From IMG/VR virus record IMGVR_UViG_3300045988_052780: DNA of 64,000 bases; one strand, given 5' to 3'. The first letter of the stretch is position 1. Each line of letters starts with the position of its first letter. This document shows positions 5,273 to 60,109 of this stretch, in pieces. The notes under the pieces are model-generated. The model had not been told where the DNA came from, made no database searches, and saw only the letters and a list, made by a program, of their open reading frames with translations. Source of the stretch: a virus. The translations under genes and the position numbers were made by a program.

Positions 5273-5286
5273 ATCTAATTCGAGCC

Positions 5287-7955: not shown

Positions 7956-8011
7956 TATATATTACAAATAAAAGTATGCAATAAGTTAGTAATTAAGATA
8001 AATTACCAATC

Positions 8012-8050
8012 AGTTTTAAGGTTCAAAATTTATGCTTAAATTTGCAAATA
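8012..8050 (+). promoter_or_regulatory. Candidate Bacteroides-type promoter with -7 box TAAATTTG at 8037-8044
   Basis: The box cTTAAATTTGcaaa matches TAnnTTTG exactly, about 25 nt upstream of the ATG at 8069. It lies in the 113-bp intergenic gap after the tail-fibre gene. Confidence 0.3.
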
Positions 8051-8068
8051 ACTTTAAAGGGAATTAAT

Positions 8069-36500: not shown

Positions 36501-39500
36501 ATGGATTTATGGATGCCGAGACTAAAGACTTACTACTTAGTGTTCTTGGTGATAAAATCTCTAACGAACGAGCAGTTATGACTGTTTTAGGTAATATGTT
36601 CGCTAATGGGATTATTAGTAGAAACGTCGATGCTAGTGGTAACTTACTTCCTGATCCATTGATGGATAAACTAATAGAAACATTAGAGAAAGTTAATGGA
36701 GAGAACTTAGAAGACATAAACAAAGAAATCCATGATGTTATTAATTCTGAAGAGTACAAGAAACAGCTTGTTAATGCAACTTTAGATTACTTTGATGCTA
36801 TAGGAGAATACTATGAGTCTGAAGATGCAGATAATGTTATGAAGTACACTGAAGAGCGTATTAATAACATGGAGAAGATATATCAGGATGCTGCTAAAGA
36901 AATAAATAACGAAGTACTAGCCAACCCGTACAATGCAACAGTATTGCAACTACGTAGTGATGTGCTTAAACTTAAAACTAGTCCAGTGTATGATTATCTT
37001 CAGGATTTTACTAGAACTGTATTCGGAAGCACTTCTAATATTATAGACCTTATAGAGAATGAGCAACGAAGATTTGAGGCAGCTCCTACTATATCTGATT
37101 ATGTTTTAGATGGCAACAAAGAGAAGGAAATAGAAGATGCTATTACAGCAATTAATATGCTTAAATCAGTAATCTATTCTAGTTCTACTGCTGATTTGGA
37201 TATTGATAGGCCATTTGGACATAATGCTCTTATGAACCACTTCTTAGAAACATACTTCCCTAAAGAAGAGAAATATGGAGTTATTAGGGACGATGTAGCA
37301 GCCATGATGAATATAGAATTGGATAAAATTATTAATCAGTTGCTGTTCTTAACTGATTTATCTATAATGAATGGGGTAAATCAGTTTAGTAAACATGCTA
37401 GAACTGGTCAAAAGATATCTAAATTGCTATACGATGTATTAAGAGGTAATGGTAAATATGGATTCCTAAAAGACTTAGAATATAACGGAACCAAGTTATT
37501 TGCAGGTCTAGATGAAATATCTACCCCAACCTTGGACAATATTGACGAAGCAGCTTATGATAATCCAGCAATATCCGTCGAATTGGCTAACTTACAGAAT
37601 AAGCTTTATGATACTTTCCATAAAATAGTATCTGAAAGTGGAGAATCAGTAAGTACAGTACTTAAAGCTATGTTCTCTAATTTAGGGGCTAAATTCAATA
37701 TGTCTAGTTTAGTAAATCAAAATAACACTAGGTTTAGCCCGGAAACGGAATATATAGAAGACTTTGATATTTATATGTGGTTGCATGCCACATTAGCATT
37801 TAAGAAGTCTGATTTTGATTACTATTTAAGAGAGACTCTTGCTGATTCAGAAGCTACCTATGCTCCCTTATTTGCCCAAGAATATGCTGCTTACATGTCT
37901 ACAGCTATGGCAGTTAACCCAGAAGTAATGAATGCTGCCATAGATAATATTGATGTTCCTAAAGGCCAACCCGGTAGTGAATTACTAAAGTACTTCAATA
38001 CTGTAATGGTTAATGGTATCGGAGGTGCTGGTAAAACAGCAGTAATTGCTAAGTTGGTACAGGGAATTGTTACTAAAATTAACCCTAATTCTACTGTGTG
38101 GAAGGTAGGTCCGTCTGAGCAACAAGTTAATAATTTGGTAAGTTCTCTAGGAAGTGATGGAAAGTCTTTTACTGTAGAAGGTTTAATGAGACATGTCTTA
38201 GGTGATGAGACTTATGGTGAACTTAGTAAGGACATTAATAGCTCTAATACTGAATCTAAATTATATGACTTGGTAGAATTTAATGAACTTAAGCAAGGAT
38301 ACACTGTAGCAGTTGCTAAGTCTGATATAGAATATAGTGATAATGCTACTCCTAGATTGCTGTTTATTGATGAAGCTACTTGGGTTAATAGCGTTTATAT
38401 GCAATTCTTATCTGATTGGGCATCCAAGAATGGTGTTACAATAATACTATTAGGGGATTTAAATCAGAATGGATATGAGAATGTAGAAACTAGTATATAC
38501 AATGTTAAACCAACTGAAGCATTAACGGTTAGAACTCCTAAACTGGATATTAGCTTACGTATTACTAATGTTCAGAAAGACGATAATAATAAGCAGGTTA
38601 ATGCAATTCTTAGTAGGATCAACTTTAACAAGGATAATGTGACCGCTGATAATGATGCAGAAGTTAGAGATAGAATATTCAATGAAATTACTAGTAATTT
38701 AATTCTGAAACATTATCAAGACGATGACAATCCACTAAATGGAGAGAAGATAGTAAATGAAATTTCAGAGGAAGATATTAAGGCATTATTGGAAGCTGAT
38801 GGTGAAATAGGTTATGTATATGATAATGAAAACTCTCCTACATATCAGTTAATTCAGAGAATGAATGATAGTAGAATCAAGGTATACACTCCTAAATCTG
38901 TACAAGGCTCAGAAGCTGCTCACTTCATTATTGATGTAGACTTTGCTAAATACGATTCTACTGACTGGGCAGACCTTATTAATTTTGCTAAATCCTTCTA
39001 TACTATGATGTCTCGTTCTAAAGAAGGAACTTACATTATTAATAATGGATTATCTGCATATGTAAAAGAGAAGAATCTTATTAAGGAAGATAGAACTTCT
39101 GTAACTCCTAGTCAGGAACGTATTATTAACACCTTCAAAGAAATCAGAATGGCTGCTTTGGATTCAGAATTGGAAGGGTATACTCCTTCTCCAATAAATT
39201 CTGAAGAGACATCTCAATCTCCTGAACCAGCTGCTAAAGCTGCTCCTTATACACCTAAAAGTCCTTCCAAACCTAAAGGAGATAATCCTATAGAGAATGA
39301 GTTATTAGGTAACTTGGATGGAAAGAAGACTACTGTATTAGATTCAGAAATAGAGGGTGTTATGTCTGGAATTAGGGCTTATGGATGGTATATGAGATAT
39401 GGTATGTTAGAGAATGAGGACGGAACATTTGATAGAGTAGTTAAAGATGATATTATAGATGATTTAAACGTCTTTACTAAAAATGGAATTCATTATACTG

Positions 39501-42307: not shown

Positions 42308-45300
42308 ATGGCATGTACTAACTTTGACATAGGGCAACACAGACTTGATGCTGAGGTTGCTCTAAGAAGTACAGTATTAAAGTTTAGGAAAGAGCCAGTA
42401 ATATCTACTGCTAATTTCATAGACGACTTCTACAACAGTTTGAAGAATACTGGACTATTTAACCTGGAGAGCGAGGCAGAATATGTCTCGCTTTCTGAGG
42501 TTCTAGAAGATTTTGTTAAAACATCCAGAAGATTAACAGATGCACAGAAGGAACAATTATTAGCTGAATATGCTGTACCGTTAAGTTCCAAATTCAGTAT
42601 TAATCCGGAAACCTCTACAGTAGAGGAAGTTGACAAGAGTCTTGTCATTAAAGACGAACCTGAGGACATTCAAGTAATTGAAGAACCATTGGAGAGAAGA
42701 GTTGCAACTCCATCCATTAGTGATATTTACGGTTCTGCTTCTGTAGTTAAGGAGTATATGCTGAATCAGTTTAGGTATAATATTATAGAAGCATCATTAG
42801 TTAATTTTGCCGACGGTAGACTTATTAAGAGCAATGATGATTTAAATGTTTATATTGCTAAATACAAGAATACCTTATTTAAGAAATTAGTCGACTATAT
42901 TAAATTAGCTAATTCTGAAGAAGGTATAGAAACTGATGCATCTATACTAGATACTATTTACCTAGATGGAATTCCTAATGTAGAGAATATGCAGAAGGTT
43001 CTGGATGCCGCTTCTAGTATATTTGAAAACATATCTAAATCTGCGTTAGACAGTGCATTCGTATCTAAGAAGAGAAACATAGAAGGATTCTATAAGAATC
43101 AGATGTTAGTGGATGGATTCAATGCATGGGCTGTTCTATCTAACGGTAACTTCGATACTATTCTTAAAAGCTTATTCGGAAAGAATATGGAAATTAGGAA
43201 TAGGGGATATGTAGGAATAGAACTACCTGTGAGCACTAATAAATACCAATTTAGATCTGGTTCTAATATGGTTAAAACATGGAGAACTAATGAGAATGTA
43301 GATGCATTATCTGAAATAGGTAATGTGTCTAGATTACTTATTGAACAAACTCCTGTAATTAATCATGTTACTGGAGAGCAGATAGGTGACAAGTATTTAA
43401 ATTTGAAACAATTCGTTCACTCTTTTAGCAAGATTAAAGACGAATACAACTTTATGTTCTTTGGGGAGAGACTACAGGATTTAGTTTTAAATTTACATTC
43501 CGCCCCTAATTATTACTTAGGAGAAATTCTTAAGGAAATATTAAATAGTGATACTAGGTCTAAGGTATTCCAAGTAAACGATCTTAACGTATTTAAATCT
43601 ATCTATGATAAGTTCTATAACAAAGATAAATTCAACTCTTTATATAATATTGCAAATAGAGACTATCTTACTTCTAAAGCTATCACTACTTACGATTTGT
43701 TAGATTCTATATCTGGAGTTGTAGATAGAACTAACAATGCCAGATATGTAGAATATGCTCTTAATAGTGATACTAGAGATTTGGATAGTTCTGAAATTAA
43801 GCAATCTAATGTAAATAGACGTAAAATACAGAGAGAGAATGATATTGATATTGCTAACGAACTTATGGCAGATAGAACTGGCCTATTAAATAGGTGGGGA
43901 ATATCTGTTAGTAACGCTACTACTGGCGACGTCTCTTTTACTTTACCATATAAAGGAGAAAAGGTTACTGTAATTTATAACAGCAATGCAGTTAGTAGTA
44001 AAGGACAAAGAAAGCTTGAATTATCAAACTCTGATATCGTTAAATTTGGAAGGCTAAATACTATATTAGAAGAACCTTCATTTACTAAGTTAAAAGCTAT
44101 ATATGAAGAGAACAATCCACAGGTACTTACTGATGGAGAAAGATTATATGTATCTTTAATAGAATTTATAGATGACTTTGCTAATACAGGATTCTTAAGA
44201 GGTAATGTAGATTTACTAGCTGCATTTAGAAATGTAAATGAAGCTAATAATCTTGATTATCTTGATAAATTAGTAGCTGTTGCAAGCAGTTCTGCATTTG
44301 TTAATACAGTATATGATGGATATGAAAATAATCCTGAGAATTTATCATTACGTTCGTATATAGAAACTCTGAACTATTACAATGAGAAGTTAGGAGATAA
44401 TAATGAAAGGTTCTACTACGATAAAGCCTCAAACTCATTAAAGGCTATTAGACCTAATTTAATTAATATACTTAATGATATTGTAGCAGCTGAACAGGTA
44501 GTAACTGGAGAAATATATAAGTCAGTTATTAAGAATGCTGAAGGTAATAATATACCTAACAGCAGGATTGCTAACTTAGCTGGACTGACTAGGAGCTACG
44601 TTAAAAAGCATATACTTGATAATCCTAGTTCTGCTTTAAAGAATACGCTATTTGGACGAAATCCTAATATGCTAATGGGAACTTCCATAAAAACTGATGT
44701 AGTTAGTAGAAATGGAATAAAGAAGAGTGCTACTAAGTTCTCGGTTGCAGAAATAGGATATTCTTCGTTAGTATATGACTTCTATGGAAACTTATTAAGA
44801 CCAAAGAATGGCAATGCACCTGTAACTATCAATGTACAACCTACTGTATATTCCGATAAGGGAACATTTGTAATGTGGAAGCTTGGTGTAGATAAGATAG
44901 ATGTACTTGATGAGAATGGTAAGCCATTACTTATTAATTTACTTACTTCACCTACTAAAGACATTATTAGTGCTATCAAAGGAACTGTAGGAACTTACTA
45001 TAAGGAAGTATTCAATAATGTATTGGGTGACTATAAAGAAGTATACAGACAATCTTTAGAGACATACTTACAAAGATTGCAGGCTATTAATCCTGAGGCT
45101 GCAAACAGAATACTATCTAAACAGAGTAAAGTAGATGCTGAGAATGCTAAAATAGCTAAACATAATGAATCTCTAGATTCAGAAAGAAACAGACTGTTAC
45201 AAGCATTAGATGCAGCACAAGCAGCTGGTGATTTTATGGATGCTAGTAGCATAGTAGATGCTTTAGACTCTCTTGATATTAAAGAACCAGTTTCATTAGT

Positions 45301-48300
45301 AGATGTACTTGACTACCAAGACTTTACTAATTTATTAGCAGTTACTACATCAGGTGAGTACACTAATATGTCTTATGCTGCTGGAGTCCCTAATATTGAT
45401 AACGTTCACACTAATACAGGAGGGTCATTTGAACTCAATGGCAAAACTAAGAAAGGCCTGATTCCTAATAAACTTTTAAACTTCCTTGCTACAGAAATGT
45501 ATGCTAAAGAGGATGTGTTTAACAAAGCTATGCTTAGAGAACGTAAGAAGTTTGTTAAGGACATGATTGACAATAATATGTCATTCCCTTTAGTATATGC
45601 CAACGGACGTAGTAATACAGTTCTTAGAAAGGCTGCGGATAAGTTATTAGGAGCTGATAAAAGACTATGGGTAAATGAGAATACTCAAGAACTTATATTA
45701 GCTAAACAGGGTAATACTAATATTACTAGACTATCTGATTTAGATAGTAATTGGTTAAGAGATGATGTAGAAATTACTCTAAATCCTCTAATTGAAAGGT
45801 ACTTTGTAGCTGATTTCTTAACATCAGAGAACCTTAGACTAGTAACTACTGGTAGTAGCATTGCACATCCAAATAAAGCTAAATATGGTAGTTTAGATCC
45901 TGACTCATTTAACGGAATAGAAATGGAACACTCTTCTAGAGAACTTGCTGAGTTAAAACGTAATGTGATTGTACCAGCTACATTACAGTATCTACATCAG
46001 AATAGTTTGACTGGAGTACCACCCTGGTATAGAATAGCTGTAATGAGTGATGTCGGAGCTCCTGTATATAACTTTAAAGGTGAAATTGCAGAAGTGGATG
46101 CACATGACGGTTCTGCATGGTGTAATCCTATTATGTCTTATTTGGAGAACTTATCATTACAAGATTCATCTGTAGGAGAAGATAAGAAACCTATTGGACA
46201 TGATTATAATGGAAGATATGGTACAGCAGCTTTATTAAAGTTTGCTACCTTCTCTGCTTACAATGAAAGGCTTCGTCAATCATTAACATCAGACATTAAA
46301 TTATATAATTTATTCAAGAAGATGTCTGATTTTAAATGGAGTGAATCAACAGCTGATTGGGATGTTCCTGCTAATGTAGACCTTACTGTAAATTTATTTG
46401 GTCAGCCAATGACTCTAAGAGATGTCACTGGAGGTGATAGAATATTTTACAGAGACGGTAACAATCATTATGAGATACTAGGACTAGACAAAGTAGGAAA
46501 TGGACTGTATAATATTAGTAAGCAGTTGGTAGATATAAATGGAAATCCAATACAAGCAGTAGGTGCCGCTAATGTATTAATTGATACTAACGTTCCAATT
46601 AATTCTTTATTTGAATTACATGCTGCTTTAGGAGGAGTTTATAGTGAATCACTTAGAGATGGAGAACTTGCATATAGCGATGCTTCATTAGCCGTAACTG
46701 CTACTTATGTTAATAATATAGGACAGTATAAAGCCAATGGAGACATACCTACTCAACGCAATACCAACCAGCCACTCAAATATAAAATGATTGCTTACTT
46801 AGTTAATAAGTCTGCAATCAAAGTGGGAGCTCAAAATATAAATCCAGATAGCTCTTGGTATGATGATTCTCCATTAATGACAATGCACTTTAATACTGAT
46901 GGCTTAGGTATGCAGATGGATGCTGACCACGTAGTTACCGACCCAGAACATCAGTCAACAATGACCGAGTTCTCTCAGGTAATTTCAGCTCTTGAATCTA
47001 TGGGATTTACTCATGATATGGCTAAGAATGCATATAAAAGCTTAGGTAAAGTTGCATTAGCTTCTATAGGTAATATTAAAGAAGCTGTATATGTTCTTAC
47101 TGGAATAAAACCTACTGATAATCCTGATGTTAAATCAGACTTGTATGAGATATTTGGTAAAGCTATTATTAAGGAATTAAATAAGAACAGCGATGAATTA
47201 GGAACTGCCAAAACTATCATTCAGAAAGCTAAGGAGGAGTTTGCTTTAGATAGGAAACGTAGAACTTCACATGGAGCTGACGCTTATAAGATTCCTTATA
47301 GTGATCCTTCTATATTTGCTAAGGCTTTATCTACATTTACGTCCAACATCAATAAGACTGCTATTAAAAGAAAGTTCCCAGGTATGGGTGCTGTTATGGC
47401 TCCTGGATATAATATCATACAGGTACATAGAATTGGAGGGCAGAATTATAGATATGACGATTTATATCGAATTGCAGCTGATGAAGGAATATCAGTAGAT
47501 GAATACTTACAAAGAGAGCAGGCTAAAATTGAATCTGAACCAGCTAATTCTATTGATAGATTACTACCTGGAGATAGAATTAAAATACCTATCCAAGAAG
47601 TGGCTAGTGTAGTTGCCAAGATTAATAGTGACGCTACTAGAAATAAAAAGTTTGCCGAATTAGAAGTTGGCAAGTATACTAGACTAGTAGATCAAGCTAA
47701 TAGAGGAGACGGTGAAGGGGTTGAACTATCTAAGGCTCAAGATAACCTTAATAAGGCACTGTCTAAGTTAGAGAGACTAAATAGAGATATAGCATTAACT
47801 GTACCTCAGTTCTTGGAAGATAATGGATGGAAACTCGAAGGAGAGTATATGTTAGTATATGTAAACGATTATGATTCTTATAATTTCGTCAAGAAGAATT
47901 TCTCTACATTTTATACTGACATTACTAGACCTACAGACTTGAAACCTGCCGAAATATACTGGGATGATGCAACTGGCAAGAGACATAGTATATTCGATAT
48001 GCCAGCAATACAAGCATCGTTTACTGAACGTAAGAAGTATAAGAAGCTTCCTAAAGAAATAGGAGCTAAATTACAGGCTGATGTTCAGAATACATTCATG
48101 TTGCTAGATAAAGGGTATATGACTGCTACTGAAGATATGTTATTGGAATATAATCAAGATCCAGTAGCATTTAGCAAGAAATACGTTCCGGAAGGTAGAT
48201 ACTTAATGGAACTGCCTAATGGTAATATAGCTATTCCAATTCAAAATCTAGTTAATAATCCTGCTGAATTAGTAATTAGTAAGTTATATGTTAATCAATT

Positions 48301-49078
48301 TAATTTAGGTCCTAATGATAGTATTAATGATGTACTTACACAAGGATACCAATTCTTCGTTAATAAGTATGATAAATATCATACTCCTAAAACTAAATTA
48401 TTTGATATAGCATTTACTAGAGGAAGTGGTAAACACGTATATATTGCATTTAATACATCTACTACTATCATAGATAAGCTATCAGCTAATAAAACTCTTA
48501 CTGACGATGACTTCATGAGAGTTGGAGATAGTATCTTTAGAATAGATAAAGATGGCAATAAATTATATGAAAGCGGATATTACGATGCTGAAGGTAATTA
48601 TCATGAGTTGGTAACATCCTATAATGCGATTGATGGTAATTCTGTTGAAGAAGTTTTAGTTGTTAGTACTCCCGATAATGTAATGGATATTTATAAAACT
48701 GACGATTTTGATTCCATTAAAATTAGTCAATATATTAAAGACAAGGCAACATTACAAGGAGTTATAGAACAGGGTAAGGACAGAAGTGACAGATTATTGA
48801 AAGGATTATATGACACATATACTAAAGCATTAGTTAAAGATGATTTTAGCGTATCTAAAATAGCTTATGAACTAGAGGCTTTAGAGAAATCTAGAAAGAT
48901 TACTGCTGCTAAGAAGAAGTTTGTATCATTCCAGAAATCTCTTGAATTTACTGTAGCTCGTATTCCGGCACAGACTATGCAATCATTTATGAAGATGAAA
49001 GCAGTAGCATTTAATGATTCTGATAAGAATGTGGTACATGTATCTCACTGGCAAACTTGGCTACAGGGAAGTGACTAT
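42308..49078 (+). CDS. Exon 1 (2257 codons) of an intron-split giant gene, a candidate virion-packaged RNA polymerase/cargo protein
   Basis: The ORF runs from the ATG at 42308. The in-frame TGA at 49079-49081 is the first triplet of the group I intron. The last exon nucleotides AGUGACUAU (49070-78) base-pair with the intron guide sequence GUAGUCACU (49121-29), ending in the canonical U.G pair. The position matches where crAss-like virion RNAP genes lie, as the last giant genes of the virion strand. Confidence 0.55.
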
Positions 49079-50152
49079 TGACCTAATTTTAACTGTTTAG
49101 TTAGGTGACATATTAATATTGTAGTCACTATAATAAATCTCGTGAATTGACGGGGAACTCCTTAGAGCTTAACCTACTAAACTAGAGTAGTAATACATCT
49201 AGTGGCGGCAATTAACTATTGTTGGTAAAGTAAAAAAGGTTAAGATTGGACAATCCGCAGCTAAGCATCCTAGATAAATATTTGGATAATAAGACTAGTT
49301 AATTGACAAAAGTTTTAATATCTTTGTGTTTATAAGGATGAAAGTTCATCGACTATCCCGTAAGGGAGTAGGAACTTTTATCTAATGTTTAACTCAAAAT
49401 ATTAGGTAAATGGCTAGAAGAATAACAAAGAAACTTAGTAAAGAACAAAAGAGCCTACTTATAGGCCTTCTTTTAGGAGATGGAACAATATCTAGTAATT
49501 ATGTATTCAAGCTAAGTCATTCTGAAGCTCAAAGAGAGTTTCTAGAATGGAAGATAGACTTATTAAACAAGTTTGGGTTTAAGAACAATGGTGTTAAGGA
49601 GTATATATCAACATGTGGATATAATAAAGGAAACAAAGTTTTATACTCTCAGATGTCACTTAACCCAACTATAAAAGCCTTAAGGAGAACAGTCTATACT
49701 CCTAAGAAACATATTACTAGAAGATTATTGAATTGGCTTACCCCTATCGGGTTAGCTATATGGTATATGGATGATGGTTGTATAAACGTAAATACTTCAA
49801 AACAGCGTAGCTCAATACAACATACAATCAAAATAGCTACGTGTGTTGATTTAGATACAGCTCAAGTAGTAATTGATTATTTCAAAGAAGTTTGGGATGT
49901 GCAATTTAGACCTTTTAAAGAAGGAAAGGGAACTTATTCTATTGCTAGTTCCACTGAATCTGATTGTGCAGCGTTCATACAAATTATACGTCCATATATA
50001 GAACAGGTTCCATCATTACTCTATAAAATTAGAGATAACTTTACTAAAGAAGAATTTATAGCACAGCAGAAAGCTGGTTCCGAAGTGCGAGACACTCTAG
50101 AGATAGAGTGATGATATAGTCAGTCTCATATTGAAAGGTATGAGGTTAAACG
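49079..50152 (+). mobile_element. Group I self-splicing intron carrying a LAGLIDADG homing endonuclease ORF
   Basis: P1 is 9 bp, pairing exon 49070-78 with 49121-29 and ending in U.G. P10 is 10 bp, pairing the 3' exon GAUAUUGAUA (50153-62) with the adjacent guide segment UAUUAAUAUU (49111-20). The terminal nucleotide 50152 is G. Core elements are readable: P ~49201-10 (AGUGGCGGCA), Q 49252-70 (AAUCCGCAGCUAAGCAUCC, close to the consensus Q), R 49344-56 (GUUCAUCGACUAU) and S 50113-25 (GAUAUAGUCAGUC). R and S form P7 as GACUAU with AUAGUC. The endonuclease ORF sits between R and S in a peripheral loop. Confidence 0.75.
49410..50111 (+). CDS. LAGLIDADG homing endonuclease (single-chain, two motifs)
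   Basis: Motif 1 is SLLIGLLLGDGTISS and motif 2 is IGLAIWYMDDGCINV. Each is a LAGLIDADG variant with the catalytic acidic residue followed by Gly. The ORF lies entirely inside the group I intron. Confidence 0.8.
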   Translation: MARRITKKLSKEQKSLLIGLLLGDGTISSNYVFKLSHSEAQREFLEWKIDLLNKFGFKNNGVKEYISTCGYNKGNKVLYSQMSLNPTIKALRRTVYTPKKHITRRLLNWLTPIGLAIWYMDDGCINVNTSKQRSSIQHTIKIATCVDLDTAQVVIDYFKEVWDVQFRPFKEGKGTYSIASSTESDCAAFIQIIRPYIEQVPSLLYKIRDNFTKEEFIAQQKAGSEVRDTLEIE

Positions 50153-53104
50153 GATATTGATAAAGCCTACGTAATGGGTTATGACTTTGATACTAATGGT
50201 AATTATATAGGATGGTCTCCATACTTCAATTTCAATTCTATAGAAGCTCTTAGAATGTCTGAAAGACTACCTACTCCTAATGGTAAACTATATGCATATA
50301 GTCATGCTCCTGGAGCTGTAGATATTACTAATTACGTGGAAATGCTTAATGAGGAGAATTTCTATAACCCAGAATCTCTACCAATCATAGCTGAGTTACT
50401 TACTGTAATTGATGATACTAACTTAGTAAGTTATACTGGGTCGGACACTAAGAATGCTGATTTTATTCTAAGCAGAATAAATAACCATTCTATGTACATG
50501 ACTGAAGAACGTGATGAGAACGGTAGAAGAGTAAAGAATGGTCGTCAGAAGATAAGAGCTATTAATACTTTGCCTGCATTTAGAAACTCTGTATCGGCTA
50601 GTATTAGTAACATTATTCAAGACCTAAAGAATATGACTCAGGCATATTCTCCAATTGAAATGGGAGATCCTCAAGCTGCTGCTGAGAATTCTACTTCTGG
50701 TAAGGAAGCTAACAAAATTACTCTTATGTCTCCTTCTGCTAAATGGGTAATGCAGATGCAGAATATGGATGGTAAACAGGTAATTGGTATTGCAGCTGTT
50801 GGTGAGAAAGTATTCTTTGCTAACTGTTATTATTTTAATGAAGGCATTAGAAGTGGAGATTCTAAGTGGATGAACAACATGTTCTTCTCTAATGTTTATA
50901 AAGGTATTCAGAGCAAGGTGTCAGAGGATGGCAAAATAATTACTGTAGATACCCTCAGAAACATAATGGCCAACATTAACTTTACTGATTTAGCTCCAGA
51001 GAAGAATTATTGGGAGAACCTAATTAGGACTGCTACTGAGCAACAATTAACTCAAGAAGATGTTTCTAGAGTTATTCAAGAGCAATTAGGAGTACAACCT
51101 GACCAATCATTGGTTATCTCAGCTTTACTATCTGCTGCAACCGATAATGCCAAGGAGTTGATTCTATCTAAAATTAATGCTGGTCCTAATCTAGCTGGTA
51201 TGTATTTACATATGATTATGTTAGGATTCAGTTTTAATGATATAGCAAAGAATCTAATGACTACACCTACAGTGCAGACGGTTAATGACTTGATGAAGGT
51301 TAACGTATTTGATGAATATCACGAAACAGCATCTGTTAACTCAGTAATTAGGTCATTAGAAGAAGGTCCTAATATTAGAAACTATTTAAATAATGACGGA
51401 CTGAAGGGATTATATGCTAGAGTGTCTGTTGATAATCCTGGAATGTTTGCCAAGAGAGGTGAGTGGATTCAAGAAATTAAAGATAGATTTGCTAATAATG
51501 GTAGCATCGAAGACATATTCCCTGCTAAGAACTTTAGAGAATTTAGATTCCTAGAGGAATATGAATACTTGTTGAAGATGAAGAGAAGGATAGATCCGGA
51601 CAAATTCACTGAATTTAAGAATATTAATTTTGATGCAAGAGAGACTGAACTTCTTGGTAGATTCTACGGGTTAAATCAAGGTATGCCAACTGATATTGCA
51701 GGTAAAATGGCAATGTTGAATACTTATGAATCAGCTATTACTAATAGGGAGCGTAAGTATCTAACTAGCAGTAATGGGTTTAATGTTGATGAACTAATTG
51801 TTAATGTATTGAAAGAGAAGCCATATTTAGAAGAAACTGCGGTCAGAAATATAGTTAAAGATGCGGTGTCTCAGAATATAGTAAATGGAGGTTTTAGTAT
51901 TAGAAAGTTCTTAGATCCAGTCAATAATGGCTACAGACAGACTACAATTGATTACTATAATATTATTAAGGGAACTTGGAACATATTTGACATGATTACT
52001 AAAATTCCTCATTTCAAAGCACTGTTTGATATTTATAATCTTACTGATACTTCTGACATAAATATAAGCACTAAGTTTAATCTGGTAAATTCCTACAGAG
52101 AAGCCCTTATTAAAGAGAATCCAGTTTACGGTAGAGCTGTTAAAAAGGAGCAATTAGCCGCATTAGCATCTCATACTGATAACGTTCTAATTAATAATTG
52201 GCTTACACGTAGAAACGTAGTATTTAGATTGGAAGAAGGGCAGGAATACATAGGATCCGACATGACTATACACTCAGCTGGTCCTGGTGGAGAAGTATTT
52301 AATTTGTCTACTAATGAGGGAATTGCTAACTTTAAAATGTGGATGGAAAGAGAGGTAATTCCTGCATTAAAGAACGGAGTTGTAGGTAATAAAAGAGTAA
52401 GATCCTTACTTATTAATAGCTTCATACAGGGATTAAGTAGAAACAGAAGATTAGATCCATTTACTAGATCTAATGTAACTTATATGAAGTTGCCAATTAA
52501 TATGTTAAGTACTGAAACAGATCCAGTATTTAGTAGATACCAAAGAGACTTTGCTGCTCTTAAGAAGATAGAACTTCAAGGAGTATCTTTAACAGATTGG
52601 TTCTTTTTGTATAATCTAGTAGTTAATAAGAATCAGTACGGTGCTGACAGATTAACTTCCCTATTTAATACAATAGATGGAGTTGATGTTAGTGATATGT
52701 TAACTGACTTTCATAATTATGTAGGTAACGCTGACTACTGGCTTGATGTTAACATGGACTCATTCTCACTGGAGGATGCCCTTATTAGGATGGCACCTAT
52801 AGTAAGTGAGAGTTCTAAAGGTAGAGCTAGGGATAAATACATTAGAATTAAAGACGATGATACAGGTAGATTATTTCTATATATGAGAAGCGGAGATGAC
52901 TACTATATGGTAGATGAAGTACCAAATATGGAAGATGAGGATTCATTAAGGTTACGTGACAATTACTTCGTAATAAATACTCCTAACCAGAGTAACAGAA
53001 TGAAGGAATTAGTAATTAACTTTTCCGAATCACTTAATACCTTAATAGGTAAGATCAAAAGTCTAATGAGACGTAATACTATACAAATGAGAATCAAGTG
53101 TTAA
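50153..53104 (+). CDS. Exon 2 (983 codons) of the intron-split giant gene
   Basis: Reading from 50153 is in frame with the ORF-track ATG at 50174 (GAT ATT GAT AAA GCC TAC GTA ATG...). An upstream stop at 50147-49 means the frame opens only at the predicted 3' splice site. Joining 49078 to 50153 gives the continuous junction ...WLQGSDY|DIDKAYVMGYDFDTNGN... with no stop. The fused product is about 3240 aa. Confidence 0.55.
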   Translation, partial: DIDKAYVMGYDFDTNGNYIGWSPYFNFNSIEALRMSERLPTPNGKLYAYSHAPGAVDITNYVEMLNEENFYNPESLPIIAELLTVIDDTNLVSYTGSDTKNADFILSRINNHSMYMTEERDENGRRVKNGRQKIRAINTLPAFRNSVSASISNIIQDLKNMTQAYSPIEMGDPQAAAENSTSGKEANKITLMSPSAKWVMQMQNMDGKQVIGIAAVGEKVFFANCYYFNEGIRSGDSKWMNNMFFSNVYKGIQSKVSEDGKIITVDTLRNIMANINFTDLAPEKNYWENLIRTATEQQLTQEDVSRVIQEQLGVQPDQSLVISALLSAATDNAKELILSKINAGPNLAGMYLHMIMLGFSFNDIAKNLMTTPTVQTVNDLMKVNVFDEYHETASVNSVIRSLEEGPNIRNYLNNDGLKGLYARVSVDNPGMFAKRGEWIQEIKDRFANNGSIEDIFPAKNFREFRFLEEYEYLLKMKRRIDPDKFTEFKNINFDARETELLGRFYGLNQGMPTDIAGKMAMLNTYESAITNRERKYLTSSNGFNVDELIVNVLKEKPYLEETAVRNIVKDAVSQNIVNGGFSIRKFLDPVNNGYRQTTIDYYNIIKGTWNIFDMITKIPHFKALFDIYNLTDTSDINISTKFNLVNSYREALIKENPVYGRAVKKEQLAALASHTDNVLINNWLTRRNVVFRLEEGQEYIGSDMTIHSAGPGGEVFNLSTNEGIANFKMWMEREVIPALKNGVVGNKRVRSLLINSFIQGLSRNRRLDPFTRSNVTYMKLPINMLSTETDPVFSRYQRDFAALKKIELQGVSLTDWFFLYNLVVNKNQYGADRLTSLFNTIDGVDVSDMLTDFHNYVGNADYWLDVNMDSFSLEDALIRMAPIVSESSKGRARDKYIRIKDDDTGRLFLYMRSGDDYYMVDEVPNMEDEDSLRLRDNYFVINTPNQSNRMKELVINFSESLNTLIGKIKSLMRRNTIQMRIKC

Positions 53105-53105: not shown

Positions 53106-55535
53106 ATGAGTTGCTCAGTTGAAATTATAATAAATTCTAACAAAGGGGCTTCCAGCGTAATCAAGCTGGAGGTTCCCGATGCTAGTGAAATGTCTTTAGA
53201 GGATGCAGTAGGTGCTCTAATGGGTAATAAAGAAGCATATGATGAGTTTATTGCTGCCGTTAACTCTGGAGGATTTCCTCTAGCTAACTTTAATATTAAT
53301 AGTAATAGACAAGGATTTACATTACCTTCTGGTAATTACAATCTAAATACTATTAGAAATGAGTTTGACACACCTAATATAAGATATCTTGTAGATGCTT
53401 TACAGAAAGAAGGAGTTGATTTAAACGCCTATAACATCTTACTTACTGATGCTAAATTCAGTGTAAATTGGAATAGTAATTACGGAATATTTAATTATCA
53501 AGGTAATTCATTAGCAGTGATTAAACCTACTCCAGATCATATAGAGACACATTTAAAACAATTATATGTATCATCTTTAATGGATAAAGCTCCCAAAGAA
53601 GTTGTAGATGGATTATACTCTAATATAGCTACAGCAGCTAAAATACTAGCCACTGACCCCACTACATCTAGAAGAGCTATGATTACGTTAAGTAAAATAG
53701 GCTATTCAGATGGTAAATTTGTCGCCAGTAAGTCTAATGTTGTCTCTGCATTTACTCATTATTTCTATTCTAGTGCTTCATTAAGTGACGCTTTATATAA
53801 GACAGGATTAATTGGAACCTTTAATAAAATATTTAATGATTTAATAGGTGCTCCAGAGCAAGAGTCCATCAGTTATGATAACCCATCTGCTCAGGCCTTA
53901 ATAGATAGAGCTAAAATATCTGGAAAGTATCTCAAAATATCTAGACAAGATATAGAGTCCTTTATGGAGAATCACGGTTATGGTGAGGCAACTGAAGATA
54001 ATATAGTGTCTGCTATTCAAGACATTAATAACAATATACATAATGGTAAGTTTATAGACATAGCATATATTAGTGATAGTGGATTGTTATTAAGAAACAC
54101 TGTCAAGAAACCTGTATTTGATAAATCTATTGTTAATACAGAATACACTGGAGATATCGTAGATTATATAGAGAACTATAATGGGTATAATATAATCAGA
54201 TATAATAATAAGTACTATATTAGTGATAAATTAATAACTACTGCTGATAATATACATACCTCTGGTGTAGACAATTTAAAACATGCTAAAAACCTGATTA
54301 CACTACAGCTAAATAGACCTATTAACTTTGAATCAGTAGCAACTAGTATTAAGAAGAAATCTGGAGACAAAGTTAACATATCTTCTAGTTCTAAGTTGGA
54401 AATAGGAGATAGATTTAGTGTATTAGATATTACATTAGATGATAAAATAAATCTATATAATGACAAGAAGCTTATTAAGTCTATAACATTTAATAACTTC
54501 GTGTCTGAAATGATGAAGAAGCCACAATACAATAAAATATTAACATCACTAAATGAACAAGGAATTAACATTCAATCTATATTAGATACTCCGGAGAAAG
54601 TAGCGACGTTCTTCTTACTTAAGAACCAACTTAGAGATCCAGAGACCCATAATGCCTTATATAATAATAAGGTTCCTAGTATGCTTACCCCGGACAAATT
54701 AAATTATGAAACTGAGCTTATTACTAAGGCGTTAAATATAATCGAAAATGCTAGTGAATCAGTGTATGAAGTAGTTGCAGCAGCTGGGGATAAATATAAC
54801 TTACAGAAGCTTCAAATGAGCACTAACGTTCCAGTTCATAAGAAGGTGCCAAGGTCATTTAAAAGTGAAATGGTAGAAATAGCCAATCATCTTGGAAAGA
54901 ATTATGGTATTAAAATTAATGTAGTTACAGCCAGAGAATTAGCAGATTCTTTTAAGGGTGTAATACCCAATGTAGGTAGAACTAATGCATTTATTTATAA
55001 TGGAGAAATATATTTAAATGTAGACAGAGCAACAACTGCTGATTCATTACATGAATTTGCACATCTTATTATGGGTTCCATTAAGAGGACTAATTCAGAT
55101 TTATATTACGGATTAGTAAACCAAGTGGAGCAACTTTCTGATTATGATGATAAAGTACAAGCATTTAGGAATATAGGAGACAGTAGAGCAGTTACAGACT
55201 TAAATGAAGAAATATTTGTTACAGAGTTTGGTAATTACTTTAGTAAGATTGCAGACACGTGGTTTGAAGGTAAGGAAACTGACTTGGATGCCCTGGGAGA
55301 ACTATTTAAAGCCAAAACTCAAAACACATTCCAAACTTCGGAAGACATTAAAGATGAGAAATTAGGTAAATTACTTAACATGAGCATAGATGATATAATG
55401 TCAGAATTTGGTAGTGCTTTAGTTAATAAGGACTTTAGAGAAGGTTTTGATATGGATATGGCATCTGAATCTCGTGTAATTACTAATCTAATAGAAAGAA
55501 TGATTAAAAGTGGTAATTTAAAGGAGGATTGTTAA
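53106..55535 (+). CDS. Large virion protein (809 aa), possibly a further cargo/RNAP-associated subunit
   Basis: ATG placed 1 nt after the upstream stop. The stop overlaps the next start. It contains one HExxH (SLHEFAHLIMGS), which is not significant on its own. Confidence 0.45.
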   Translation: MSCSVEIIINSNKGASSVIKLEVPDASEMSLEDAVGALMGNKEAYDEFIAAVNSGGFPLANFNINSNRQGFTLPSGNYNLNTIRNEFDTPNIRYLVDALQKEGVDLNAYNILLTDAKFSVNWNSNYGIFNYQGNSLAVIKPTPDHIETHLKQLYVSSLMDKAPKEVVDGLYSNIATAAKILATDPTTSRRAMITLSKIGYSDGKFVASKSNVVSAFTHYFYSSASLSDALYKTGLIGTFNKIFNDLIGAPEQESISYDNPSAQALIDRAKISGKYLKISRQDIESFMENHGYGEATEDNIVSAIQDINNNIHNGKFIDIAYISDSGLLLRNTVKKPVFDKSIVNTEYTGDIVDYIENYNGYNIIRYNNKYYISDKLITTADNIHTSGVDNLKHAKNLITLQLNRPINFESVATSIKKKSGDKVNISSSSKLEIGDRFSVLDITLDDKINLYNDKKLIKSITFNNFVSEMMKKPQYNKILTSLNEQGINIQSILDTPEKVATFFLLKNQLRDPETHNALYNNKVPSMLTPDKLNYETELITKALNIIENASESVYEVVAAAGDKYNLQKLQMSTNVPVHKKVPRSFKSEMVEIANHLGKNYGIKINVVTARELADSFKGVIPNVGRTNAFIYNGEIYLNVDRATTADSLHEFAHLIMGSIKRTNSDLYYGLVNQVEQLSDYDDKVQAFRNIGDSRAVTDLNEEIFVTEFGNYFSKIADTWFEGKETDLDALGELFKAKTQNTFQTSEDIKDEKLGKLLNMSIDDIMSEFGSALVNKDFREGFDMDMASESRVITNLIERMIKSGNLKEDC

Positions 55536-58500
55536 TGGCTTGTACATACAGTTTAAATATAAATGGTCAAATACAGCAATTTAACGATTATGCTGAATTG
55601 TTTGACTTCTTAATAGGACATAAGAACCAAATTGAAATGGGACTTATATCAGATATTGTGTTTAGCCAAGACACTAAGCAGTCCGAAATGGTAGCTAAGT
55701 TAAGATCTATTAAAGCTACCGCTAAACTCAACAGCAACGGAGTAGACCCTGTATCTGGTGATATTGTGTACAAAGCAGAAGGTTCTAACATGTCAGTTAC
55801 AGATTTCTTAGAAACTGCTACTATTACCAAAGATTCTAAAGAAACTTTCTTAGGACAGCCGTTCAGTATTAAGAATTGGAGAAATAATACTATAAATGAA
55901 TTGGTATCCAAGGGTATGACTCATGCTGAAGCTGAAGAGCAGGTTAATAATATTATGGAAATGTGGGAGAGGATAGCAGATACTGGCGCTGAATTACATG
56001 CTGTTTTAGGTGATTACTTTGCCGGTCATATGTCATTAGAAGAGCTTATAGATAAGTATGCTGGAGTATTTAGTGAACAAGCTGTCAGGAGTATATACAA
56101 GAATATGGCATCTTTTAAAGATGAAATCTATAAGGCACATGGACAGGACGCTAAACTACTGCCTCAATTTACTATAGATTCTAAAACATTGGATGGAGTT
56201 AATATAATAGGTTCTATAGATTTGGTAGTGATAGGTGAGGATGGTCAACCGCATTTATATGTCTTCAAAAGTTCTGCAAAGTTGTCTGATAGGTGGGATG
56301 CTGCTAAGCAAACTAAGTATGATTACCAGTTAGCTTTCTATAGACAAATGTTAGCTTCCAAAGGTATTCCTGCTGCTAATATGGAACTGAATATAGTACC
56401 TATGCATCTGGAAGGGCTAGAGGATGGGGAATTAACTGGAGTTAGCTTCGAAGGAGTGCAAGACAGAACTAAAGATTCTGGAGGCACCATTAATAGACTA
56501 GCTTGGGGAGTAGGTGAATTTTATAATAATGTGAGTTATGCAATTCCAGTAAGACTTACCGATGAAACTATAGGGGAATCTATTAGAGATAATGTACTAG
56601 ATACTCTTAGTAAGTTTATACCTAATCCTAAGATTAAATCAATTAGAGAGCAAATTGATGTAGATGCTTTTATTGCAAATCATGTTTATGATTCTCCGAA
56701 TCCCTCTGAGGGCAGATGGTATTTTAAAGATTTCTACAGTAAAGGAAAGCCTATCTATATCAAAGAAGATTCACCTAAAGAGAAGAATGCGGAACTTAGA
56801 GTAGAAGTAGAGAAATACCTAAATAAGATGGTTAAGAATCATAGACTTAAGACTAACAAATTTATCTATGATCTTAAAAGAGCCATTGATGGTAAAATTC
56901 CGTTGGAGGATGTGAGTCCTACTACTGGATATACTACTAATGCCTTTGTAGTAACTACATTCCAGAAATATGTTAACGATCCAGGATGGGAATTAGTAAA
57001 TATAGAAGCACTAAAACAATTAGGAATTGTAGCTATTAGTAATACTATTACCAAACAAATTGATTTTATTGCATTAAGCCATCATGATTTACATACTGAA
57101 CTTAAGCTATCTTTAGGAACTACAATGTTAGGAGAACATGAAAAGGACGCATATGCTCTTAATAACAAAATGATATTATTGGCAACTAATGGCAATATTG
57201 AGTTAATGAAGATAATGGCTGCCATTAATGAGATTCCTAATGCATTAACTGATGTATTTAAAATAGGAGACATTAAGGTAATTAATACAGAAGACTCTAA
57301 AGCTACCACTGCTACTTCAAGACAGATAAAGGAAACATTTAATCTGTTAGCCAAAGCAGCTAAAGTTAATAATAATATTAACAAATTGTCCTTTATGGAT
57401 GAATTGGATGTTATTAAGAATGAGTTCCTAGCTTTGATGAACAGACCTAATGGTAAACTTACTAATAGTTTGTCTAGAGATATAGAGGCTTTATCTAAGG
57501 AATTATTCAACATTAATACCGTAAATAAGAATGAGATAGCCAATAGACTAATAGCCCTAGCTAGAAGGATGGAGAATGGAGAACGTCTTGGTAAGATAGT
57601 TGGAGGTTCTCTAGAATCTATAGCTAATGAATCTTCTAACACTGGAATAGAAAGACTATACAAGTCAATATTACAGGCTATAGCTTATTATAAAGGATTA
57701 GACTTCCTTCAACCTAAAGAGATTTCTAGATATACACAGAAAGGAACTCCTTTATCTGGAGGTATGATAACTAATCCGGATTTATTTCCAGAGGATAACT
57801 TACGCCAAATTACTCTTGCTGTGAGAGGTGCATTTGATAACGTTACTAGAGAAATGACTCCTTATCATGAGAAATTCCTTACCGGATATGTAAAACCCTT
57901 ATGGAAAGATAAAGGTTACAGTAATGCCAGAAACATTGTTATAGGAGATCAGGTTAAGCTGTATAATAATTTCTTTAGAAGGAATTCTGACGGAAGTCTT
58001 AATAATAAGATGTTATTTGTAGATCCTTATGATAGCAGTACTCCACTTACTTCAGAGGAAAGACGATTCTTAAAGCAAGCACTGTGGCTTATAAACCAAG
58101 AAAGATTCCCTAATATCAGAAGCTTGTCTGAAGATAGCGAGACGGTAAAGCAACTTAAGAAGACCGAGAAGTGGTTCTGGGTTCCTCTTATGGAAGCCAA
58201 TAATCAGATTCTACAAATGGGAATTAGTAAGTGGATTAACCAAGAAGTAAAGGACGTAACTGGAAGATTTAAGGATTATTGGAATAGATCCCAAAACGAT
58301 GCTTATAGTGATAGGGAGTATAGTGACAAACAGAAAGTAATTACTAGGTACGAAATGTACAATAGATTTAATTTATCAGAAGCCAGTGAGGAAGCTAGAG
58401 ACGCCTTATTAGCTGAATATAAACCAGATTTCTGGGAACGTAACATAGAGACCCTAGTAACTACTTATAAGTTTGCATCAGCTAGAAAGGAACAATTGGA

Positions 58501-60109
58501 TATTATATTACCTGCAATTAAGGGAATAAAGATGTCATTATTAGGATATGCTAAGTCTACGGATACAGATTTATCAGTCCTTAATGAGACTTTGGACAAC
58601 TATTTAAAGGTAGCAGTATTTAACCAATCTATTATTAGTGAAGAAGGCCGTCAAGCTTTTGAATATCTTAACCCTATTAAAAGACTAGCATCTTTTGGAC
58701 TACTTGCATTTAACGTTACTGGGGGTGTTCGTGATATGATTAATGGTATGTGGAAGCAGTCATCTCTAGCCTTTAGTAAAATGTACTATACTGATGAGAA
58801 GTTCACTAGAAAGGATTTGGCCCAAGCTATGGCATTAGTAACCAAAGAAGGGCCAGATATGCTTAGTAGGACTACTAAGATTGAGGCTATTAATAATATG
58901 ATTAGACTAGCTAATATAGATATGCAAGTTCTAAATAAACGGCTTATTAGTAACAAATCTGGATTAGCTAATATGTCTAGGCATGCTTATCAGTTAACTA
59001 CTGCCCCGGATTATTTCCATCGTATGACCATATTTGTAGCTCAATGCTTACATGATGGTACATGGGATGCATTAGAAATGACTGATGAGGGCATTAAATA
59101 TAATTGGAAGAAAGATAAGCGTCTAGCAGTATATGCTTCTGGTAATAAGAGTAATCCTGAATACAATAAGCAAAGAGGACTTTATTTATCTATAATGGAA
59201 GCCTATAATAGAGACAATGGATTAAATCTAAAAGAAGGAGATGATTTACCATTTGCCTATACTAAAGATGAAGTATTGGCTGCTAAAACCTTGTCAGATC
59301 TTATTTATGGACACTATGACCAGGAAAGTAGAGCTTTGGCTGAGAAGACATTTATGGGAGCATTATTCGGACAGTTTAAAACCTATTTATCTGCAACTAG
59401 AAATGCCTATTTACTTAAACCCAAGAATTATAATTTAGCTGGAAGAGTTCAAGCTAAGAATGACAATGGTGATTTATTATGGTATAAAGATGAGGTGGAC
59501 GAGAACGGTAATTCTATAGTAATAGTCACTACTGAGAACACTGGAGTTCCTGCTACTATTAATGAGGACAGATATCTAGAAGGTATTTATTATACTATTA
59601 AAGACTGCTTTAGGGCTTTACATGAAGGTGGATTCTCAGAATTTAGAGATAGTATCTGGAATGAAGAGACCGGTGTAAAGAAAGCAAATTTAAAGAGATT
59701 AGCTCATGATATGTTCTTATGGATGATACTTGGAACTATAGGTAAATACCTTATTGAACTATGGGGAGAGACTAGAGAGGAAGATAGAGATCCTTTAAAT
59801 CCTAACATGTCTCAAGCCATGAGAGATACTGTATTTAGCCTATTTGAAAGAGGTTACAACAGTTCATACGGAGATATAGCTCCCTGGAGTGTGTTGCTAG
59901 GACTTATTAAAAATTCAGAACCTGTATCTATAGGATACTTAAGTACATTCTTTAATAATACTTATGAGTTTGCATTTGGTGATAAATCTCTATCATCTTA
60001 TCTCACAGGAACTACTGGACTTGGTAGAACATTTAAAGGAATGACTACAGAACTTAATAATATGTCCAAACTTGCAGCAGATGCAATAGAGGAAGATACA
60101 GCACAGTAA
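55535..60109 (+). CDS. Giant virion protein (1526 aa), the last gene of the virion strand, a possible cargo/RNAP-associated subunit
   Basis: The ORF-track start at 55529 is a TTG. The first ATG is 55535, overlapping the upstream stop as TAATG, and it is preceded by AAGGAGG. The ORF is uninterrupted to 60109 and is followed by the bidirectional terminator. Confidence 0.5.
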   Translation: MACTYSLNINGQIQQFNDYAELFDFLIGHKNQIEMGLISDIVFSQDTKQSEMVAKLRSIKATAKLNSNGVDPVSGDIVYKAEGSNMSVTDFLETATITKDSKETFLGQPFSIKNWRNNTINELVSKGMTHAEAEEQVNNIMEMWERIADTGAELHAVLGDYFAGHMSLEELIDKYAGVFSEQAVRSIYKNMASFKDEIYKAHGQDAKLLPQFTIDSKTLDGVNIIGSIDLVVIGEDGQPHLYVFKSSAKLSDRWDAAKQTKYDYQLAFYRQMLASKGIPAANMELNIVPMHLEGLEDGELTGVSFEGVQDRTKDSGGTINRLAWGVGEFYNNVSYAIPVRLTDETIGESIRDNVLDTLSKFIPNPKIKSIREQIDVDAFIANHVYDSPNPSEGRWYFKDFYSKGKPIYIKEDSPKEKNAELRVEVEKYLNKMVKNHRLKTNKFIYDLKRAIDGKIPLEDVSPTTGYTTNAFVVTTFQKYVNDPGWELVNIEALKQLGIVAISNTITKQIDFIALSHHDLHTELKLSLGTTMLGEHEKDAYALNNKMILLATNGNIELMKIMAAINEIPNALTDVFKIGDIKVINTEDSKATTATSRQIKETFNLLAKAAKVNNNINKLSFMDELDVIKNEFLALMNRPNGKLTNSLSRDIEALSKELFNINTVNKNEIANRLIALARRMENGERLGKIVGGSLESIANESSNTGIERLYKSILQAIAYYKGLDFLQPKEISRYTQKGTPLSGGMITNPDLFPEDNLRQITLAVRGAFDNVTREMTPYHEKFLTGYVKPLWKDKGYSNARNIVIGDQVKLYNNFFRRNSDGSLNNKMLFVDPYDSSTPLTSEERRFLKQALWLINQERFPNIRSLSEDSETVKQLKKTEKWFWVPLMEANNQILQMGISKWINQEVKDVTGRFKDYWNRSQNDAYSDREYSDKQKVITRYEMYNRFNLSEASEEARDALLAEYKPDFWERNIETLVTTYKFASARKEQLDIILPAIKGIKMSLLGYAKSTDTDLSVLNETLDNYLKVAVFNQSIISEEGRQAFEYLNPIKRLASFGLLAFNVTGGVRDMINGMWKQSSLAFSKMYYTDEKFTRKDLAQAMALVTKEGPDMLSRTTKIEAINNMIRLANIDMQVLNKRLISNKSGLANMSRHAYQLTTAPDYFHRMTIFVAQCLHDGTWDALEMTDEGIKYNWKKDKRLAVYASGNKSNPEYNKQRGLYLSIMEAYNRDNGLNLKEGDDLPFAYTKDEVLAAKTLSDLIYGHYDQESRALAEKTFMGALFGQFKTYLSATRNAYLLKPKNYNLAGRVQAKNDNGDLLWYKDEVDENGNSIVIVTTENTGVPATINEDRYLEGIYYTIKDCFRALHEGGFSEFRDSIWNEETGVKKANLKRLAHDMFLWMILGTIGKYLIELWGETREEDRDPLNPNMSQAMRDTVFSLFERGYNSSYGDIAPWSVLLGLIKNSEPVSIGYLSTFFNNTYEFAFGDKSLSSYLTGTTGLGRTFKGMTTELNNMSKLAADAIEEDTAQ

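Follow-up and report, generated by a model that had tools for sequence, protein, structure and literature searches.

Among the crAss-like phages, gp66 of Cellulophaga phage phi14:2 holds both barrels of a two-barrel RNA polymerase (RNAP) in one polypeptide and is active as a single chain in vitro; each Asp-to-Ala change in its catalytic loop, 1361-DFDID-1365, abolishes the activity, and position four of this loop is Ile or Val in all crAss-like RNAPs (Drobysheva et al., 10.1101/2020.03.07.982082). The DxDxD motif is a marker of crAss-like RNAPs, and its disruption in the RNAP genes of the 'Zeta group' has been reported as 'stop codons and frameshifts', for which unknown expression mechanisms were suggested; the legend of Fig. 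3 in the same study places a LAGLIDADG 'intron-encoded endonuclease maturase' in the transcription block (Yutin et al. 2021, PMC7886860). This account of the disruptions was repeated in a 2023 review (PMC10136315), and our literature search found no paper that resolves the DxDxD break to defined group I introns. Here we analysed a break of this type in the IMG/VR virus record IMGVR_UViG_3300045988_052780, a stretch of 64,000 nucleotides (hereafter the window). It is very probable that the interrupted gene is one gene of two exons encoding a 3240-aa, single-chain two-barrel RNAP, with a group I intron inside the catalytic triad and a LAGLIDADG endonuclease encoded by that intron. A crAss-like virion-type RNAP and a LAGLIDADG group I intron at a catalytic site are both of kinds already known, and the locus is no new kind of system. 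Our additions are modest, namely that the published DxDxD disruptions can be read as ordinary introns and that the motif seems to be a homing hot spot with three sites.

The list of open reading frames (ORFs) shows a 2257-codon ORF at 42308-49081, followed by a 233-aa ORF at 49410-50111 and a further ORF at 50174-53104. The first of these closes with LQGSDY (window 49061-49078), in which the first Asp and the Tyr of the motif are encoded by 49073-49078, and a TGA stands directly after it. Translation from 50153, in the same frame as exon 1, gives DIDKAYVMGYDFDTNGN; the codons for Asp2-Ile-Asp3-Lys occupy 50153-50164, and the first ATG of exon 2 appears only at 50174. When 42308-49078 and 50153-53104 are joined, a 3240-aa ORF without internal stop results. 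Its sole D-x-D-x-D, DYDID, lies at residues 2256-2260, that is 69.6% along the protein, and the predicted tryptic peptide across the junction is NVVHVSHWQTWLQGSDYDIDK. An earlier note on this DNA had claimed that splicing rebuilds a D-x-D-x-D motif about 70% along a fused protein of about 3240 aa, and its coordinates and peptide prove to be exact.

The junction is fixed to the base because intron-less relatives read LQGSDYDIDK unbroken. This is the case for the homologues P0008 (...QAYLQGSDYDIDKVYLMGYDFD), P0009 (...QTWLQGSDYDIDKAYIMGLSFD), P0013, P0034 and P0036, and for the locus L007. The latter has no insert although its flanking protein is identical to that of the intron-bearing L006, and comparison of their DNA puts the insertion exactly between TAT and GAT; likewise, the exon 1 boundary is fixed at the DNA level by the intron-less alleles L007 and L004. 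In L001 and L006 the 21 nt ahead of the first exon-2 ATG differ mostly by synonymous changes, so that the encoded residues are conserved; these 21 nt are therefore translated. The two exons share one frame (1074 = 3 x 358), and the 1074-nt insert contains 43 stop codons of all three kinds in that frame; hence it must be removed at the RNA level.

Several features support the view that the insert, placed between the Tyr and the second Asp codons, is a group I intron with a homing endonuclease, as far as this can be read from sequence. The end of exon 1 and an internal guide sequence can form a P1 helix of nine contiguous pairs, in which the last exon base, a T, makes the G.U pair at the 5' splice site, and this helix is present in the minimum-free-energy fold (z = -4.7). 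Of 27 sources, 21 allowed P1 to be scored, namely the window, L001, L006 and 18 of the 24 IMG/VR loci; among these it covaries at two positions, with exon C/guide G replaced by T/A and exon T/guide A by C/G. In L001, L015, L016 and further sources the guide sequence changes along with the exon. A 23-mer of the intron core, GGACAATCCGCAGCTAAGCATCC, was found in 24 IMG/VR loci, in all of them adjoining motif-coding sequence, and both junctions (...GSDY / DIDK...) are readable in 15 of these. The conserved core element near the 3' end is present in 6/6 introns compared, with one variant reading GATATGGTC. The intron ends in ...AAACG, followed by exon sequence GATATTGAT, and its boundaries coincide with the indel seen against the intron-less L007 and L004. 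In the window the Rfam core is split by the endonuclease ORF of ~700 nt; an ORF-less intron of the same family at the same site, 363 nt long in L013, scores 63.0 bits (E 2e-14; the Rfam gathering score is 50). ORF-less versions at this site were observed both in L013 (about 1271-1633, 363 nt) and in L020 (about 5774-6151, 378 nt). L013 has a short GGAA-GAAA-UUCC hairpin where the window has GGAAC...[endonuclease ORF]...GGTTCC, and the endonuclease ORF therefore sits in a hairpin loop.

The 233-aa product matches Pfam LAGLIDADG_2 (91.5 bits, cut-off 25, E 7.6e-26) and PHROG 11023, a family of LAGLIDADG homing endonucleases (E 5e-24), and the two LAGLIDADG motifs in its translation correspond to the monomeric type. 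The endonucleases of the window and of L006 share 67% identity, against about 34% for exon 2 of the polymerase. Such similarity far above that of the host exon, together with the presence/absence and ORF-plus/ORF-less polymorphisms, is a signature of lateral homing, and these sequence comparisons point to lateral spread of the intron by homing. In its general design the element resembles the introns of T4 td, nrdB and sunY, of the SPO1/SP82 DNA polymerase and of cyanophage psbA and DNA polymerase genes: insertion at conserved, critical codons, a P1 formed with exon codons, an endonuclease ORF in a peripheral loop, ORF-plus and ORF-less versions, and different introns at neighbouring sites. It differs from them in that the host gene is a two-barrel virion-type RNAP and that the insertions fall within the metal-binding triad itself.

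The host gene is supported as a crAss-like two-barrel RNAP homologous to phi14:2 gp66. The proven catalytic block of gp66 (2180 aa, sequence from GenBank record KC821624), GSDFDIDKMYVM, shares 10 of 12 residues with the window block (core GSD[F/Y]DIDKxYVM), the longer catalytic stretches being TGSDFDIDKMYVML in gp66 and QGSDYDIDKAYVMG in the window protein. With hhalign, a family profile of 11 sequences aligns to gp66 1073-2180 (probability 91%), and a profile of 87 sequences aligns to 1304-1663 (probability 97.1%, E 5e-11) with the motif falling on 1361-DFDID-1365. Five motif pairs are collinear in this comparison, namely RIPAQ..QSF/YRIPNQGQSS, the catalytic block, AYSPIEM/LITPIDF, GKQVIGIAAVG/GKSGVGITANM and ISALLSAATDNAKELIL/ISAFLNAFVDNAKDPYI. 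The first of these blocks has R, I, P, Q, Q and S invariant in the 9-sequence alignment A4, and the counterpart of the bridge helix has G, K, V, G, I, A and K invariant in alignments A2/A3; in the gp66 paper the bridge helix comprises residues 1529-1559 and the trigger loop 1598-1636. The gp66 match appears in hmmsearch only with the HMMER filters off, for which reason a shuffle control was run: gp66 scores 38.8 bits (E about 5e-9 at PDB size), and the best of 1000 shuffles reaches 4.3 bits. One further profile, A1, gave no match against PDB because most of its rows begin after the motif. From the alignments to gp66 the Mg-binding triad is placed, with high confidence, at D2256, D2258 and D2260 in GSDYDIDK. 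The same three-aspartate loop occurs in QDE-1 (DYDGD) and in the multisubunit beta' subunit (NADFDGD), from which the window protein differs by Ile in place of Gly. This Gly-to-Ile difference had been thought to weaken the call; that objection falls away, for Ile is the crAss-like norm at position four and gp66 itself reads DFDID, and the residue is therefore diagnostic and strengthens the assignment.

Structure prediction leads to the same protein. A first AlphaFold model (residues 1800-2900) was poor near the motif, and its top Foldseek match, 6VR4, was not significant (E 0.37). Because of this poor quality around the motif, the region was remodelled after the alignment had been deepened with 22 upstream homologues. 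The second model (residues 1860-2720; predicted local distance difference test score, pLDDT, 77.4) places 6vr4_A first among PDB entries (E 4.2e-5, probability 1.00, 545 columns), and ranks 2-50 are all bacterial RNAP beta' chains, each of them non-significant (E 0.04-0.2), so that gp66 is the unique significant structural match; QDE-1 was not recovered by Foldseek against PDB. A double-psi barrel geometry around DYDID would fit this model. The profile and structure comparisons thus bear out what the earlier note had proposed, a homing intron in the catalytic triad of a crAss-like two-barrel RNAP, and so do the homologues that span the junction.

Beyond the catalytic block, gp66 (PDB 6VR4) and the window protein share the RIPxQ, bridge-helix and trigger-loop motifs in the same order, with Ile at position four, a Cys at or next to the C-terminus, and a position near the end of the late/virion block, where in both phages the polymerase is followed by a large structural protein. 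They differ in length (2180 aa in gp66 and 3240 aa here, ~1060 longer) and are only 14-20% identical over aligned regions; the window gene is interrupted by an intron, and its neighbouring giant genes are without significant similarity to those of phi14:2. As to the C-termini, the window protein ends in ...MRIKC (53093-53104), almost all full-length family members end in Cys or Cys plus one residue (...NCE, ...VCQ, ...IKC), and gp66 ends in ...QECK.

A word-indexed protein search and an exhaustive profile search recovered 1660 cluster representatives of the family (E <= 1e-3). Conservation of the motif was counted among the 150 best of these about 1660 representatives, 95 of which span the site. 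D-x-D-[I/V/Y]-D is present in 95/95, with Y at position four only once, and the three aspartates at the junction are thus invariant. The standard GSD...DK flank occurs in 86 of them (DYDID in 62, DFDID in 14, DLDID in 7 and other forms in 3), and nine more have variant flanks. When 12-residue windows are ranked by conservation over the 570 aligned residues that surround the motif, LQGSDYDIDKAY and SAATDNAKELIL take the top two places, with the trigger-loop motif first; this ranking is partly circular because the alignment was chosen for the motif, and the 95/95 count is the better figure. Most uninterrupted full-length relatives have 2800-3800 aa (the longest about 4500), and the motif lies at a fractional position of 0.59-0.73 in them. 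About a quarter of the representatives (~38/150) begin at or within the motif, as MG..., MDYDIDK, MYDIDK or MDIDK.

The motif is interrupted at more than one point. In different phages, group I introns of three unrelated types are inserted at three adjacent sites of the DYDID codons (Table 1), and each type exceeds the Rfam gathering score in at least one locus. The endonuclease of the S/D site is only 25-28% identical to that of the window. A second recurrent interruption point is indicated right after SAATD (SAATD/NAKE) in the trigger-loop motif SAATDNAKELIL, at window 51113-51163: the gene calls of many relatives end after SAATD or start with NAKELIL/MYLHL (P0028, P0030-P0033, P0035, P0107, P0150, P0159 and P0170), and the window gene is continuous at this point.

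The mechanism we propose would run as follows. In the transcript, the Ser-Asp-Tyr codons would pair with the guide sequence as helix P1, and the ribozyme would then excise itself and ligate the exons, by which DYDID would be restored. An mRNA left unspliced would end at the TGA that opens the intron and yield a 2257-aa protein without two of the three catalytic aspartates. The presumed target of the LAGLIDADG endonuclease is the same invariant sequence in intron-less alleles, whose cleavage would spread the intron by homing.

Some observations weigh against this interpretation. With Rfam in gathering mode, neither the window nor five loci gave a match, and the window intron itself yields two partial matches to Intron_gpI (RF00028) of 28.5 and 22.1 bits, below the gathering score; our intron matches were obtained in E-value mode on small regions. 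Profile A6 found no match among PDB sequences under default HMMER filters, and blastp and phmmer against gp66 align only the 16-19-residue motif (E about 0.04-0.08), the remainder being not significant. In the better model the DYDID loop (model residues 395-399) has a pLDDT below 50, with strands flanking it. The alignment of an upstream profile to gp66 1043-1246, on residues ~1487-1703, is a tentative placement of the second barrel (hhalign probability 5.5%, P 0.007). Splicing in vivo, endonuclease activity, polymerase activity and packaging in the virion are expected properties of the locus, and packaging of the polymerase would be likely from its synteny and homology.

Other explanations of the interrupted gene can be weighed against the same evidence. 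If 42308-49081 and 50174-53104 were a truly split gene that codes for two separate subunits, with no splicing and a free-standing endonuclease gene between them, this would agree with the gene calls of many relatives, in which the exon-2 part appears as a separate protein of ~900-1150 aa starting with MG..., and split beta' genes do occur in other lineages. Separate translation, however, would leave Asp2-Ile-Asp3-Lys untranslated and destroy a motif that is invariant in all spanning relatives. The 21 nt before the first ATG are in frame and conserved as amino acids, the spacer has all group I hallmarks, including covariation of P1 with the exon, and near-identical alleles are known with and without the insert; we consider a split gene very improbable. 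A passage across the interruption without RNA splicing, be it through an intein, stop-codon readthrough, a programmed frameshift or 'yet unknown expression mechanisms', has been raised by Yutin et al. 2021 for breaks in DxDxD, and both the recoding of TAG in relatives and the common frame of the exons would be compatible with it. Against this, all three stop codons occur in the exon frame of the insert, no tRNA genes are present in the window, whose long ORFs stay open under the standard code, Pfam shows no Hint or intein domain in the insert, the endonuclease ORF lies in a frame other than that of the exons, and group I introns of Rfam level are present at all three insertion sites in relatives. 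Such a bypass is hardly credible; intein and readthrough in particular were rejected on the 43 stops and the missing Hint domain.

It might also be asked whether DYDID is a chance motif in some other virion or ejection protein. About 1.2 DxDxD are expected by chance in 3240 aa at 7.2% Asp, and the bare motif is not beyond chance; therefore the case for DYDID rests on its context. The giant proteins have no family match in PHROGs or Pfam, and phmmer with the junction region against PDB sequences found nothing relevant. The context, on the other hand, comprises the residues shared with the gp66 catalytic block, four further collinear motifs, the hhalign probability of 97%, the large excess over the shuffle control, gp66 as the only significant structural match and three invariant Asp in the representatives examined, which makes a chance motif extremely improbable. 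More room is left, although we still think it unlikely, for a variant in which the spliced protein is the catalytic core only and the 809-aa, 1526-aa or 2927-aa helicase products are obligate subunits: the four genes keep strict synteny in every relative examined, Yutin et al. have described a multi-protein 'transcription gene block', and the second barrel is not confidently located. Yet gp66 alone makes RNA in vitro with both barrels in one chain, and the catalytic motif, the bridge helix and the trigger loop are all found in one spliced protein, to which the tentative alignment of gp66 1043-1246 (on residues 1487-1703) also belongs. The idea that the downstream genes encode partner subunits is not required. 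We thus prefer the reading as a single two-exon RNAP gene interrupted by a group I intron.

Table 1. Positions of the features of the interrupted polymerase gene, its intron and its neighbours; positions refer to the window unless a locus is named.
Feature	Position	Strand	Description	Basis
Gene with superfamily-1 helicase core (2927 aa)	33518-42301	+	helicase core at aa 1495-1700	Pfam AAA_30, Viral_helicase1, AAA_19
Exon 1 of RNA polymerase gene	42308-49078	+	2257 codons, ends ...WLQGSDY	ORF list, translation
RIPAQTMQSF block	48959-48988	+	aa 2218-2227; gp66 counterpart YRIPNQGQSS, upstream of catalytic loop	
P1 helix, 5' strand AGTGACTAT	49070-49078	+	exon codons Ser-Asp-Tyr; pairs with 49121-49129	
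Predicted group I intron	49079-50152	+	1074 nt; starts with in-frame TGA, ends in G	Rfam, intron-less allele
Internal guide sequence GTAGTCACT, P1 3' strand	49121-49129	+	9 contiguous pairs with exon end	
Intron core, 5' half	49144-49375	+	Rfam model positions 56-151	22.1 bits, E 0.006
LAGLIDADG homing endonuclease ORF (233 aa)	49410-50111	+	motifs LLIGLLLGDGT and LAIWYMDDGC	
Conserved core element GATGATATAGTC	50110-50121	+	overlaps endonuclease stop codon; aligns to invariant GAUAUAGUC of Rfam consensus	
Terminal G of intron, 3' splice site	50152	+	G right before GAY ATT GAY in every readable intron 3' end	
Exon 2 of RNA polymerase gene	50153-53104	+	983 codons plus stop, starts DIDKAYVMG...	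translation
GKQVIGIAAVGEK	50771-50809	+	aa 2464-2476; counterpart of gp66 GKSGVGITANM in bridge helix	hhalign
VISALLSAATDNAKELI	51113-51163	+	aa 2578-2594; counterpart of gp66 ISAFLNAFVDNAKDPYI in trigger loop	hhalign
Two downstream genes (809 aa and 1526 aa)	53106-60109	+	conserved partners of polymerase gene	
Y/D site	window, L001, L006, 24 IMG/VR loci		about 1075 nt with 233-aa endonuclease; ORF-less 363-378 nt	63.0 bits (L013)
D/Y site	L009, about 8746-9003		257 nt, no ORF	Rfam Intron_gpI 54.1 bits
S/D site	L010, about 4320-5618; L011, about 7780-9078		1299 nt with 304-314-aa LAGLIDADG endonuclease	80.9 bits (L011)

The polymerase gene stands at the end of the strand of capsid and tail genes. 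It had been described as the last and largest gene of that strand; it is the largest, and the 809-aa and 1526-aa genes still follow it before the strand switch near 60.1 kb. The helicase gene lies upstream of the polymerase also in L006 and L011, and a helicase-bearing gene does so in L004; the 809-aa/1526-aa pair is found in L001, L006, L009, L010 and L011. The order helicase, polymerase, 809-aa gene, 1526-aa gene and strand switch is kept in L006 and L011, and from the polymerase onward in L001, L009 and L010. The 1526-aa protein (55529-60109) has a PD-(D/E)XK nuclease domain at aa 133-278 (Pfam PDDEXK_1, 24.3 bits, cut-off 22). Its C-terminal ~250 residues show a weak collinear hhalign match (P 0.005) to the C-terminus of the phi14:2 protein after gp66, and blastp gave no match between the neighbouring giant genes and the phi14:2 neighbours.

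For the capsid protein (9180-10601), the only remote matches are capsid proteins of Crassvirales, and a search of PDB sequences gave no match. Among GenBank phages, megablast and tblastn found only two unannotated relatives, both human faecal, and the relatives in general are contigs of 77-185 kb. Compared with MT835470.1, the capsid protein is 98.9% identical, and the polymerase region (47854-52867) only about 75% in DNA and about 80% in protein; this contrast suggests that the two phages are mosaic or have diverged very unevenly. NCBI assigns one exon-1 homologue, P0056, to Bacteroides sp. (70-kb contig; annotated as a hypothetical protein, partial), which hints weakly at the host or else at phage contigs binned with Bacteroides. 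Over the final 520 codons of exon 1, L006, L009 and L011 carry 5-16 in-frame TAG codons where Gln stands in the window; this indicates recoding of TAG to Gln in these three loci, such recoding being typical of late genes.

The described features of the window fit a gut phage that is distantly crAss-like (Crassvirales-related), and the closest resemblance is to the 'Zeta group' (Yutin et al. 2021). The two have in common a human-gut source, relatives of 145-190 kb, almost no homologues among GenBank phages, TAG recoding in the late genes of relatives, a high intron density, RNAP ORFs broken within DxDxD and a LAGLIDADG intron ORF drawn in the transcription block. The difference is that for the window the break can be assigned, with base precision, to an ordinary group I intron.

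A more speculative reading, which we hold only tentatively and think rather less probable than an even chance, is that the 15 nt encoding DYDID are a contested homing hot spot, where introns serve as weapons and shields between co-infecting crAss-like phages. If true, an insertion at any one of the three sites would abolish the targets of the other two endonucleases, a rival's polymerase gene would be cut at its catalytic codons, and infectious, polymerase-loaded virions would depend on ribozyme activity. The SAATD/NAKE point, as a second hot spot, would belong to the same contest, which would then cover most of the 'unknown expression mechanisms' proposed for the Zeta-group RNAP genes.

The present analysis gives a correct gene model for a key enzyme of an abundant, uncultured branch of crAss-like gut phages, whose polymerase is split by automatic annotation into two 'hypothetical proteins' plus an endonuclease. 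The DxDxD breaks of the Zeta group are explicable by ordinary group I introns, and no unknown expression mechanism is needed. The active site of the polymerase is a recurrent target of mobile introns, which bears both on the competition between phages and on the annotation of their genomes.

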